The position numbers were made by a program, and so were the translations under genes. Below are positions 3,934-7,219 of a stretch of DNA of 64,000 nt, one piece after another; the first letter of the stretch is position 1, and each line of letters starts with the position of its first letter. The stretch is from Nannocystis pusilla (GTDB lineage Bacteria; Myxococcota_A; Polyangia; Nannocystales; Nannocystaceae), in contig NZ_JAPNKE010000002.1 in the NCBI RefSeq assembly GCF_026626665.1, forward strand, positions 1,549,204 through 1,613,203. The letters are read 5' to 3'. The notes below the pieces were generated by a model that was given only the letters and a program-made list of their open reading frames with translations, did no database searches and had not been told where the DNA came from.

Positions 3934-4788
3934 GTGTCGGCGGTGAAAGCCGGGAGGCGGCTTGACAGGCGGGCGCGCTGGGGCGGACGCTGCGGCGGCG
4001 TGACGGAGCGCGGGGACACTGCGGCGGCGGAGGAGCTCGCAACGGGGCTTCCGGGGCCGACGAGGCCGCGCTGGGTGGTGATCCACTGGACGCCGGAGGC
4101 GCTCGGGCTGGTGCGGGCGATCGCGGCGGCCGAGCCGGCGCCGGAGCTGACGCTGATCGGGCCGGCGCCGGCCGAGGCGGTCGCGGCGGCGCTGGCCGAG
4201 TTGCCCGCGGGACATGTCCAAAAGTACTGGCAGGGATCGGCGAGCGGCGGGGTCGAGGCGCTGGCGCGCTTCTTCGCCGACACCGCCGGGCTGCCGGCGG
4301 CCGACGCGATCATCGTGCTGCCGCTGCGCGGCCACGGCGAGACCGACGCGTTCTCGCGCCTGGTGTGCACGGCGATCCTGCGCGCCTGCAAGGGCAAGCC
4401 GCCGCACGTGGTGGTGGCGGTCGAGGACCCGGAGGCGACCCACGAGTTCGAGGGCCTGGGCGTGGCGACGATCTTCTACCCGGGCTTCTTGCGCGCGGCC
4501 CTGCTGGCCCACGCGTGCGTCGACCTCGGGGCGTTCCGCTTCATGCTGGCGCTGCTCGGCGGGCGCCTGCGCGTCGAGACCTGGCCGGTGCCGCCGGAGC
4601 TGCGCGCGGGCACGTTCCGCGAGGCCTGCCTGAACGTGGAGGTCGACCGCCGCGGCCGCCCGGTGACGCTGATCGGGCTGTTCGCGCCCGGCGAGGGCGG
4701 GCCGGACGCGATGCTGCTGAGCCCGCCGCCCGCCCGCCCGCTGCGCGACGCGAGCGCGCTGCTGGTGCTGACCGGAGAGGCCGAGTGA
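3934..4788 (+). CDS. RCK/TrkA-N-like domain protein, a putative soluble regulatory subunit for the downstream channel. The true start is probably internal, near 4060.
   Basis: Alternating hydrophobic beta-strand and helix pattern (RWVVIHWTPEALGLVRAIAAAEP…IIVLPL…PHVVVAVEDPEATHEFEGLGVATIFYP) followed by a TrkA-C-like tail. The pattern resembles the C-terminal RCK region of the adjacent channel gene. It is on the same strand directly upstream of the channel, and contains an in-frame motif copy (PAGHVQKY). Confidence 0.45.
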   Translation: MSAVKAGRRLDRRARWGGRCGGVTERGDTAAAEELATGLPGPTRPRWVVIHWTPEALGLVRAIAAAEPAPELTLIGPAPAEAVAAALAELPAGHVQKYWQGSASGGVEALARFFADTAGLPAADAIIVLPLRGHGETDAFSRLVCTAILRACKGKPPHVVVAVEDPEATHEFEGLGVATIFYPGFLRAALLAHACVDLGAFRFMLALLGGRLRVETWPVPPELRAGTFREACLNVEVDRRGRPVTLIGLFAPGEGGPDAMLLSPPPARPLRDASALLVLTGEAE

Positions 4789-4889
4789 GGCGCGGGGAGC
4801 GGCGGCCCGACGGCGCGTCCGCGCGAGGCGAGCGCGCGGCCGCAGCGAGCTCGTCGCGGGCGCGGCGGGGCGTCTCGCTGCCTGGCCGT

Positions 4890-4956
4890 CGGGGCATGTT
4901 CTCGCGGACATGGCCGATCGCGCCTGTCCTCCTGGGCATGTTCCTGCAGACAGGCG
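4890..4956. repeat. Five-unit 14-bp motif array overlapping the start codon and signal-peptide codons of the TAXI-channel gene.
   Basis: ggggCATGttctcgcggaCATGgccgatcgcgCCTGtcctcctgggCATGttcctgcagaCAGGcg. Confidence 0.8.
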
Positions 4957-7219
4957 TGGCGCGGGCGGGCGAGGCGATCGCGGTCCGCTTCGGCTCGGGG
5001 GCCAAGAAGGGCGGGTTCGACGTGACGGCGCACGCGCTGGCCGAGGCGGTCCAGGGCGAGGGGCGCGTGACGATCGCGCCGGAGGCGACCCGGGGCTCGT
5101 GCGAGAACGTCCACAAGCTGCTGTCGGGCGAGCTCGACGCGGCGCTGGTGCAGTACGACGTGGCGGCGGAGGCGTTCAAGGCCGGGCTGGCCGACGCGGA
5201 CGCGGGCGGCAGCGCGATCCCGAAGGGCGGGTGGATGTGCAAGCTGTCGCCCGAGGAGGCCGACAAGGCCGAGCTGCGGGTGATCGCGGCGGTGTCCGAC
5301 GCGGCGGTGCACGTGCTGGTGCGCCGGCCGGTGCGCCTCGACGACTTCGCCGAGATCGGCCGCGAGCCGCTGTTCATGGGCAAGGACGGCTCGGGCAGCT
5401 ACGAGACGGCGAAGGTGATCCTCGGCGCGGCCGGCCACACCGCGGAGCAGCTGCCGCTGTTCGCGGGCACGGCCGACGAGGCGCTGGCGGCGATGAGCCG
5501 GCGCGAGCTGCTGACGATGCTGCGGACCACCGAGCCCGGGCACTCGGAGATCCGCGACGTGCTGGCGTCGGGCCTGGCGACCCTCAACCCGCTGCCCGAG
5601 GCGGTGCTGAACCGCCTGATCGACGGCTACCCGTATTACCGGATCTGCCCGATCGAGACCGGGACCTATCCGGGCCTCGAGTACAGCATGCCGACGGTGT
5701 GCGTGAGCTCGGTGGTGGTGGTGGCGACGCCGCGCGAGCGGGTCGAGGACGAGGCCTTCCTCGCCGACCGCCGGCTGGCGGTCGAGGCGATGATCCACGG
5801 GCTCAAGAAGCTCGCGCGCGACCCGAAGTACGCGAGCCTCAAGGTCCGCGTGGAGTGGCGCGGGTTCGCCGAGCGCGAGCCGATCCCGCTCCACCCGGTG
5901 GCGGAGCTGCACGAGACCAGCGAGCGCCGGCAGGCGTGGCTGCAGGGCGGGGCGTTCGCGGCGGCGCTGGGGGTGGTGCTGTACCTGGTGCGCCGGGCGC
6001 TGCGGCGGCGGCGGGTCCCGGGCGCGGGGATCGAGAGCCAGCTGTCGAACCCGCTGGTGCCGTTCGCGGCGTTCGCCTGCGTGGTGACGCTGTCGACGTT
6101 CATCGTCTGGTCCTTGGAACATGACTCGAACGCCAGGCTGCGGACGCTGAACGACTCGTTCTGGGAGATGAACACGTTCGCCACCGGCAACTTCACGACC
6201 GAGACGCTGAAGACGCCGACGGCGCGGCTGGTCGGGGCGGCGGCGACGATCCTCGGGCTCGGCCTCTTGGCGTGGTTCACCGCGACGCTGACGAACATCT
6301 TCGCGCAGGAGCAGACGCGGCTGTGGCGGCGGCTCAACCGGCACCTGGTGGTGCTGAACTTCCGCGAGGACATGCTGCCGCTGATCCGGCTGCTGCGCAG
6401 CCGGGGCCGACGCGGCACCGGCCGCTGCACGTGGTGGTGTCCGACGCGCTGCCGCGGCGGGTGCGGCTGCAGCTGGCGCGGGTCAAGGCGCTGACGATCC
6501 ACCACTCGAACCCGGAGGTGCCGGAGGACCTGGCGGGGCTGCGGCTGCCGCGGGCGTCGCGGGTGATCGTGCTCGGCGACGGCGACGGGTCGGGGGCCAG
6601 CTACGATCCGCTGCGGATCGCCCGCGCGGTCCATCAGGCGTGCGCGCGCGACCCGATCGGCGGCGGGCAGCGGGCGCGGACGCTCGGGGTGGCGGCGACG
6701 TCGGTCGAGATCGCCCGCACCGCGCCGGCGCTGCCGGTGACTCTGGTGGAGACGTCAGAGGCGGAGCGCGAGGAGGTGTTCTCGCCGTTCGCGGCCTGGC
6801 TGGTGCCGGTCGATTGCCAGGCGCTGGCGCACCGCTGGCTGGTGATGGCGTGCCGCGACCGCGCGTTCGCGGAGCTGTTCAACCGCGTGGTGGCGTTCGC
6901 CGACGACAACGCCGAGGTCTACACGGCGCCGGCTCCGACCTGGCTCATCGGACAGCCGTGGCGCAAGGTCCGACGCGCCCTGCTCGAGGTGCAGGGGCGC
7001 GGCGGCGCGGTGCCCCTGGGGCTGTATCGCGCGGCCGATCCGGGCGGCAAGGCGCCGGCCGGCGGGACGTCGCACGCGGAGTTGCGGCGGCGGCTGATCG
7101 TCAACCCGCGGCCGGACGAGACGCTGGTGCCGGGCGACCTGATCGTGGCGCTGTGCGAGGACGAGGCCGACCTGGTGCGGATCGTGGCCGAGAGCCGCAA
7201 GGCCGCGGCGCCGAGCTGA
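4897..7219 (+). CDS. Fusion protein: signal peptide, TAXI-family (TRAP-type) periplasmic solute-binding domain, 2-TM K-channel-like pore, then RCK/TrkA-N domain. There is an apparent 1-nt frame break near 6410-6430.
   Basis: The TAXI hallmarks are present: TGSCENVHKLLSGELDAALVQYDVAAEA, AVHVLVRR, GKDGSGSYETAKVILGAAG and PIETGTYPGLEYSMPTVCVSSVVVVA. Two TM helices flank a pore-helix/filter-like segment (LNDSFWEMNTFATGNFTTET). Then HLVVLNFREDMLPLIRLLRSRG reads on in the 6272..7219 frame as RPLHVVVSDALPRRVRLQ... (RCK). The frame switch occurs at the homopolymer-rich agccggggccgacgcgg. The start codon and signal peptide (MFSRTWPIAPVLLGMFLQTGVARA) lie inside a 5-unit motif array. Confidence 0.65.

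Follow-up and report, generated by a model that had tools for sequence, protein, structure and literature searches.

A conserved Nannocystis gene pair that looks like an uncharacterised type of ligand-gated channel with a TAXI receptor domain

What kind of membrane protein is encoded by a gene in which a TAXI solute-binding domain is followed by a pore-like membrane region and an RCK domain, directly downstream of a second gene for a soluble RCK protein? This question is raised by a locus in a 64,000-nucleotide stretch of the Nannocystis pusilla genome (contig NZ_JAPNKE010000002.1, positions 1,549,204 to 1,613,203; referred to as the window in the following), whose genes are termed gene A (soluble RCK protein) and gene B (TAXI fusion protein) here. 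Genes A and B are a conserved gene pair in this Nannocystis genome, and we consider it rather probable that their products assemble, as two types of subunit, into a tetrameric P-loop cation channel that is gated by ligands and belongs to the CASTOR/POLLUX-MthK lineage. The genome has a G+C content of ~74%; the DNA at the locus is 95% identical to that of Nannocystis sp. RBIL2, and the encoded proteins share 93-98% identity with their counterparts in N. exedens and N. pusilla. On the plus strand, the G+C content at third codon positions (GC3) was ~1.0 in three stretches, namely 4000-4750 (frame 1), 4900-6400 (frame 0) and 6400-7200 (frame 2), and the scan revealed no dip in the coding signal where gene B changes its frame; gene B is treated below in its repaired form (see Table 1). 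The start of gene A, placed at 3934 in the first-pass annotation of the window, is most likely the GTG codon at 4000 instead, since the resulting 262 amino acids equal the length of N. pusilla P0121/P0122 (98% identity). All four peptide motifs quoted for gene B in that annotation were found in the plus strand translation.

The N-terminal part of gene B had been proposed to be a TAXI receptor domain, and this assignment was confirmed: The Pfam model PF16868 (NMT1_3) matched gene B well above its cut-off (E-value 2.8e-24; 86.7 bits, cut-off 27), and a profile of the gene B family matched the TAXI crystal structures 1us4 (TtGluBP) and 8u79 in the PDB with E-values of about 6e-28, 8s4j being a further match; the model TIGR02122 stayed slightly short of its cut-off (81.2 versus 84.35 bits). 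Ahead of the domain lies a hydrophobic N-terminal segment that closes with A-x-A and is common to the gene B homologues, as judged from their alignment. In VcGluP, the bound glutamate is contacted by six residues, i.e. Y45, S75, Q93, E125, Y200 and M201 (PMC11574862). According to pairwise HMMER alignments these map to F40, S68, Q86, D135, L209 and R210 of gene B: The serine, the key glutamine and an acidic residue are present (three of the six positions kept or conservatively replaced), whereas Y45, Y200 and M201 are replaced by Phe, Leu and Arg, with the result that both tyrosines of VcGluP are lost and a nearly invariant arginine is gained. An amino-acid-like or anionic ligand of the TAXI domain appears plausible; glutamate itself would not be predicted. 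As a separate feature of this domain, Cys-69, Cys-115, Cys-251 and Cys-269 (window positions ~5100-5705) were invariant among 34 homologues, which suggests two periplasmic disulfides specific to their clade.

The membrane region of gene B comprises three hydrophobic helices according to hydropathy analysis (residues 347-369, 383-409 and 441-470) and not two as initially claimed: an additional transmembrane (TM) helix, TM0, precedes the module of TM1, pore helix, filter loop and TM2, so that the elements of the pore module of tetrameric P-loop channels are all present in their usual succession. From the charge pattern, i.e. by sequence rules of membrane topology, the TAXI domain and the TM1-TM2 loop would be periplasmic and the C-terminus cytoplasmic; with the P-loop on the outer side of the membrane, as the distribution of charges indicates, the pore module is predicted to have the orientation known from K channels. 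The TM1-TM2 loop LEHDSNARLRTLNDSFWEMNTFATGNFTTE together with TM2 (GLGLLAWFTAxLT) represents the most conserved stretch of gene B: Pore helix, loop and TM2 were nearly invariant, with at least 30 fixed positions among 34 sequences of 44-93% overall identity, and the hexapeptide F-A-T-G-N-F at the filter position was identical in 34 of 34 aligned sequences. The T-V-G-Y-G signature of K+ channels is absent from this site, in agreement with the earlier description of a non-canonical filter-like loop. An AlphaFold2 (AF2) prediction of the TM and RCK part based on 18 sequences (predicted local distance difference test score, pLDDT, 58; predicted template modelling score, pTM, 0.34), to be read as secondary structure and weak fold evidence only, yielded TM1 and a short pore helix (submodel helix 83-94), with a loop leading from the latter to an extended inner helix.

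Downstream of TM2 follows a domain of ~290 amino acids that starts with HLVVLNFREDMLPLIRLLRSPG and displays a beta-alpha-beta pattern. The GxGxxG motif of the KTN subtype was absent from the first strand in both proteins (VVIHWTPEALG in gene A, VVLNFREDMLP in gene B), whereas the features of RCK membership, a Rossmann-like N-lobe and a C-lobe with an RCK-specific fold match, were present. Gene A had no Pfam match above threshold; its top sequence match in the PDB was the ring of DMI1 (0.018), its predicted structure model was RCK-like, and its profile aligned with the cytoplasmic domain of gene B over 237 columns with a hhalign probability of 95% (E-value 3.4e-8), i.e. the two RCK domains are paralogous. 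The comparison of 38 loci from Nannocystis, Enhygromyxa, Plesiocystis, Paraliomyxa and metagenome-assembled genomes of Nannocystaceae located a gene A homologue directly upstream of the TAXI-channel gene and on the same strand in 34 cases, the exceptions being truncated contigs. Paralogy, structure model and synteny uphold the assumption of a stand-alone RCK protein encoded upstream of gene B. In relatives of ~1000 amino acids that carry tandem RCK domains, the gene A profile fitted RCK2 better than RCK1 (P0237: 2.4e-8 versus 0.92; P0238: 7.5e-9 versus 20), and gene A may be regarded as RCK2-like. On the simplest reading, it would supply in trans the RCK2 half of a ring of eight RCK domains.

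The sequence of gene B itself gives thin evidence of a channel with an RCK domain; decisive in this respect are its relatives. A profile of the TM and RCK part, from which the TAXI domain had been left out, was searched against 1.84 billion cluster representatives and recovered 284 proteins at E-values of at most 1e-3, 94 of them at 1e-10 or below. Channel and RCK domains could be recognised in relatives at E-values of 1e-13 to 1e-19: They matched Slo-like_RCK, TrkA_N and Castor_Poll_mid, some of them also BK_channel_a, which supports the cytoplasmic RCK domain postulated for gene B. Castor_Poll_mid was present in P0236, P0242, P0245, P0264, P0235 and P0307; P0264 matched Ion_trans_2 above the cut-off (23.6 versus 22.5 bits), and P0307 matched Ion_trans below it (21.5 bits, cut-off 25). 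The filter position of the relatives was occupied by (S/T)-G-x-(E/F), e.g. YLFSGLEDRxP, and by TVGYGD in a few of them. A word-indexed homologue search that started from the distant relative P0264 gave almost no matches. The best 146 matches of the TM and RCK profile included 103 representatives with a length of 600 amino acids or more, and 92 of these possessed a TAXI-like N-terminal domain; relatives with a length of 340-400 amino acids were devoid of it. The TAXI-channel architecture is thus widespread and dominates a large, mostly metagenomic channel clade. The FATGNF clade and the A-B pair were restricted to Nannocystaceae in a species-level genome scan that used clade-specific patterns. 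In the databases, members are named "TAXI family TRAP transporter solute-binding subunit", "hypothetical protein" and, in one case, "voltage-gated potassium channel" (JGI). Literature searches for TAXI-channel fusions retrieved no paper describing one, in agreement with the initial statement that no characterised member is known; in a 2025 paper on TAXI-GltS fusions, the non-standard TAXI architecture presented there is termed "unprecedented", and channels are not mentioned. A variant of the architecture was observed in P0011, P0014, P0015 and P0035 (loci L024, L030), proteins of ~1100 amino acids from Enhygromyxa, Plesiocystis and Pseudenhygromyxa with two tandem TAXI domains ahead of the TM0-pore-RCK part.

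With respect to known systems, MthK or TrkA had been named as examples of such a gating ring; the nearest solved relatives are CASTOR and DMI1, however, and together with MthK, but not with iGluR/GluR0, these represent the closest known systems. CASTOR, POLLUX and DMI1 (PF06241) are Ca2+-regulated channels of the plant nuclear envelope. The CASTOR filter reads AD(S/A)GNHA, and the protein is reported to be a Ca2+-selective and not a K+ channel (PMC6697748). The core of a small residue followed by G-N is common to this filter and the ATGNF of gene B; the essential filter residue Asp-265 of CASTOR is, however, an alanine in gene B, the tandem RCK1-RCK2 of a single CASTOR chain contrasts with the single RCK domain of gene B and the separate gene A, CASTOR has no extracytoplasmic sensor comparable to the N-terminal TAXI domain with TM0, and Castor_Poll_mid did not match gene B itself. 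Based on the non-canonical filters of gene B, its relatives and CASTOR, the gene B family is proposed to belong to a non-canonical branch of RCK-regulated P-loop channels that also holds CASTOR/POLLUX, which does not imply membership in these families at the Pfam level. In MthK, the Ca2+-gated K+ channel of Methanothermobacter, the soluble RCK has the same sequence as the tethered one and originates from an internal start codon, whereas the soluble RCK here has its own gene upstream and is a paralogue that has diverged; furthermore, the filter of MthK reads TVGYG, and a periplasmic domain is absent from this channel. The two-subunit TrkA/RCK ring of Thermotoga (TM1088A:TM1088B, PDB 3l4b) and GsuK, compared with gene A by fold only, likewise contain no extracytoplasmic ligand-binding domain.

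The likeness to GluR0-type channels suggested in the first-pass annotation holds in principle but not in topology. Like GluR0 and the ionotropic glutamate receptors (iGluR), gene B couples a periplasmic-binding-protein-type domain covalently to the pore module of a tetrameric P-loop channel, and a weak Lig_chan similarity exists (gene B 13.9 bits, cut-off 30.8; P0223/P0224 17.9-19.2 bits). In these receptors, however, the channel interrupts a binding domain of the SBP_bac_3 type (S1-M1-P-M3-S2), and their pore is inverted, whereas the TAXI domain of gene B is unsplit and stands ahead of the additional helix TM0, and the pore module, with its predicted K-channel orientation, is followed by an RCK domain. 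Owing to this topology, with an unsplit TAXI domain and the P-loop outside, and to the Lig_chan score below the cut-off, an iGluR-type protein was rejected. The TAXI-TRAP and TAXI-GltS systems (VcGluP, TtGluBP, BP0403) share a homologous TAXI domain, and its tethering to the membrane by fusion has a precedent there; the partner in gene B is a P-loop channel with RCK domain, in contrast to DctQM or the elevator transporter GltS. By analogy, the A-B system would work most like MthK, CASTOR and BK with an extracytoplasmic sensor added.

The data above establish the identity and order of the domains, their conservation, the synteny of the pair and the paralogy of gene A with the RCK domain of gene B. 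According to the proposed mechanism, whose stoichiometry, gating and coupling, ligands and ion selectivity are drawn by analogy, TM1, pore helix, FATGNF loop and TM2 of four B chains would build the pore. A periplasmic TAXI "Venus-flytrap" would be linked in every B chain by a short rigid helix to TM0, and TM0 would pack on the pore module. The four RCK domains of the B chains and four soluble gene A proteins would assemble into a hetero-octameric A4B4 gating ring, the counterpart of the RCK1-RCK2 ring in the tandem-RCK relatives, CASTOR and BK (compare the internally initiated soluble RCK of MthK). On the periplasmic side, a small, probably amino-acid-like or organic-anion molecule would bind to the TAXI domain, whose clamshell closure would reach the pore helices by way of the short rigid linker and TM0; on the cytoplasmic side, the RCK ring would pull the inner helices upon binding of a ligand. 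Because the GxGxxG motif is absent, this ligand is most likely not NAD but a cation, e.g. Ca2+. In view of the non-canonical filter, the cation conductance is proposed not to be K+-selective.

Several observations weigh against a ligand-gated A-B channel of this kind. Pfam gave no match of Ion_trans_2 or Ion_trans to gene B at E-values of up to 1, none of the models Ion_trans_2, TrkA_N, TrkA_C and Castor_Poll_mid exceeded its threshold on gene B, and the TM and RCK part obtained sub-threshold similarities to Lig_chan, TrkA_C and TrkA_N only. The PDB matches for the pore and the RCK domain were weak (E-values 0.02-0.2), and those obtained with the TM and RCK profile were marginal: the DMI1 ring at 0.029 and the S5-P-S6 region of KvAP/KCNQ at 0.1-0.2. 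The filter contains neither TVGYG nor the acidic residue needed in CASTOR, so that conduction is putative. The A4B4 ring is suggested only indirectly, by synteny, paralogy and the RCK2-like preference of gene A; in P0264, a relative with a single RCK, a gene for a soluble RCK is missing from the neighborhood, and the two-gene arrangement is in consequence not universal. Lastly, the path from the TAXI domain to the gate is speculative, as the domain is joined via TM0 and not directly to the gate helix.

A non-conducting receptor, in which a degenerate P-loop scaffold relays the TAXI occupancy to the RCK domain and gene A for signalling elsewhere, might account for a filter that is far from all validated selectivity filters, with neither the K+ signature nor the Asp of CASTOR, and for the lack of any Pfam channel model above threshold on gene B. 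It is nevertheless unlikely: The strongest conservation of gene B, comprising at least 30 invariant positions, falls on the pore helix, loop and inner helix and fits a functional permeation path, the relatives retain an (S/T)G-containing loop at the equivalent site, and the RCK is the sole output domain.

Both further readings of the membrane part appear quite improbable to us. A binding-protein-dependent transporter, in which the TAXI domain hands its solute to the membrane domain as in TAXI-TRAP and TAXI-GltS and the RCK domains serve as a brake as in Trk, Ktr and Kef, would have to operate with TM0 and a P-loop module of two TM helices, without the scaffold or transport domains of the elevator type; moreover, the relatives match the channel families Ion_trans_2, Ion_trans and Castor_Poll_mid, and the pore of tetrameric P-loop channels does not offer enough width for the passage of amino acids or organic acids. 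A K+-selective, MthK-like channel with a merely accessory TAXI domain could invoke the relative that JGI named a voltage-gated potassium channel and the occurrence of MthK, KcsA and KvAP among the structural and sequence neighbors; TVGYG is, however, missing from the gene B family and from most of its relatives, and CASTOR, which among the solved relatives with a G-N filter comes closest, is the channel reported as Ca2+-selective (PMC6697748).

The reading of gene B as a channel subunit presupposes an intact gene. Alignment with five Nannocystis genomes (L001-L005) identified the frame break as a single C absent from a CCC run (CAG-CC-GGGG in the window, CAG-CCC-GGGG in the other genomes) and moved it from position 6410, where it had been placed before, to 6401/6402. 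Restoration of the C resulted in a protein of 774 amino acids that is 93% identical to the equally long P0001 of N. exedens and colinear with its full-length homologues, of which there are more than 110 with lengths of 757-837 amino acids. At least four further genes of the window are frame-broken, i.e. rpiA and the genes for a DUF1579 protein, a TPR protein and a secreted protein; the break is clearest in rpiA, where positions 2-49 of the Pfam model Rib_5-P_isom_A are encoded in one frame and positions 49-170 in the next. In another N. pusilla assembly (12.69-Mb contig), gene B is annotated as a 474-amino-acid product (P0083) and contains three frame breaks, none of them where the break of the window lies. 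Since the break affects a homopolymer, further genes including rpiA are frameshifted in the window and P0083 is interrupted elsewhere, it is very probably an assembly error; the indels across the window and the differing breaks of P0083 point to long-read indel errors and not to gene decay. That the break is real and gene B of the window a dead pseudogene, as could be argued from the truncation of the product as written after TM2 and from the likewise broken gene B of P0083, is highly improbable and was rejected as main explanation in view of the other frameshifts of the window, with GC3 remaining at ~1.0 on both sides of the break as a further point against it.

The surroundings of the A-B pair (see Table 1) contain one recurrent element: The TauE/SafE permease gene occupied the same divergent position in 31 of the 38 loci including those of Enhygromyxa, even at ~40% protein identity (tblastn). 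The permease is possibly a functional partner of the A-B pair, and a link to organosulfonates or sulfite may be considered. The AAA_16/STAND-type NTPase gene was common, among the loci, to N. punicea (L002) only and thus lies outside the conserved unit. The seven neighbor genes scanned within 1250-13020 encode TauE, an AAA/STAND NTPase, CAP, an M28 peptidase, DUF1570 (weak match), MFS and one protein without match; a TRAP membrane component (DctQ/DctM) was not among them. Scans for promoters, terminators and Rfam families over 3500-7600 gave no matches. A palindromic decamer, GGRCATGYCC, was found in 10 copies in the window in comparison to 0.4 expected (positions 433, 4210, 8634-8671, 17591-17642, 27266-27317 and 40521); several copies form intergenic clusters of two to three exact units spaced 14 to 42 nucleotides apart, and a looser cluster at 4892-4945 overlaps the start codon and the signal-peptide codons of gene B. 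The decamer could be an element resembling repetitive extragenic palindromes or a set of regulator sites.

Table 1. Features of the A-B locus and further frameshifts in the window (window coordinates; residue numbers refer to repaired gene B).
Feature	Position	Strand	Remarks
AAA_16/STAND-type NTPase gene	2077-2949	-	upstream of TauE
TauE/SafE-family anion permease gene	3003..3710	-	divergent from gene A; Pfam TauE, E-value 8.2e-34
Gene A	4000..4788	+	soluble RCK protein, 262 amino acids; N-lobe and C-lobe, without TM segment, without GxGxxG
Gene B	4896..7219	+	TAXI-TM0-pore-RCK fusion; start codon ATG 4896; 774 amino acids after restoration of C at 6401/6402
Gene B reading frames as written	frame 0 up to 6401, frame 2 from 6404	+	
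Predicted Sec-type signal peptide MFSRTWPIAPVLLGMFLQTGVARA	4896..4967	+	residues 1-24; likely cleavage after ARA, site deduced from the sequence
TAXI solute-binding domain, predicted periplasmic	4971..5903	+	residues ~26-336; closes with FAExEPIPLHP motif
TM0, predicted anchor helix	5934..6002	+	residues 347-369, followed by predicted cytoplasmic RRALRRRR; hydropathy, positive-inside rule, continuous helix in AF2
TM1, predicted outer pore helix	6051..6116	+	residues about 386-407; hydropathy, AF2; aligns with S5 of KvAP and KCNQ
Pore helix and filter-like loop DSFWEMNTFATGNFTTE	6153..6203	+	F428-A-T-G-N-F433 invariant
TM2, predicted inner helix	6225..6305	+	residues about 444-470; invariant GLGxLAWFTAxLT; basic stretch after it
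RCK domain tethered to TM2, predicted cytoplasmic	6342..7216	+	residues 483-774; strand HLVVLNFRED where GxGxxG is expected
Frame break in gene B	6401..6402	+	one C missing; alignment with L001-L005
Other frameshifts	~22400 (rpiA); 8640-9147 minus (DUF1579); ~16600 (TPR gene); ~21900		

Channels regulated by RCK domains and channels gated by binding proteins (iGluR/GluR0) are both well-studied paradigms. To our knowledge, an unsplit TAXI receptor has not been described in one channel together with an additional coupling helix, a non-canonical filter similar to that of CASTOR and an RCK ring encoded by two genes. The A-B pair looks like a well-conserved, uncharacterised type of ligand-gated channel, the function of which we infer. 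If this is true, it would represent a second, independent blueprint for the opening of a tetrameric pore by a Venus-flytrap domain and reveal a signalling role of TAXI proteins beyond transport, and experimentally tractable bacterial kin would become available for the plant symbiosis channels CASTOR/DMI1, whose pore lacks a resolved structure. Dozens of database clusters labelled as solute-binding subunits of TAXI family TRAP transporters are in fact channel fusions. More tentatively, and with doubts outweighing our confidence, the complex may be a dual-input channel: An intact TAXI domain would gate a non-inverted, CASTOR-like, non-K+-selective pore via TM0, and the tethered RCK domain with the RCK2-like protein in its ring would add cytoplasmic control. 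Such a channel would be an independent solution to the problem solved by the iGluR and might convert the presence of an extracellular metabolite into an ion or voltage signal in predatory marine and soil myxobacteria and in many uncultured bacteria.

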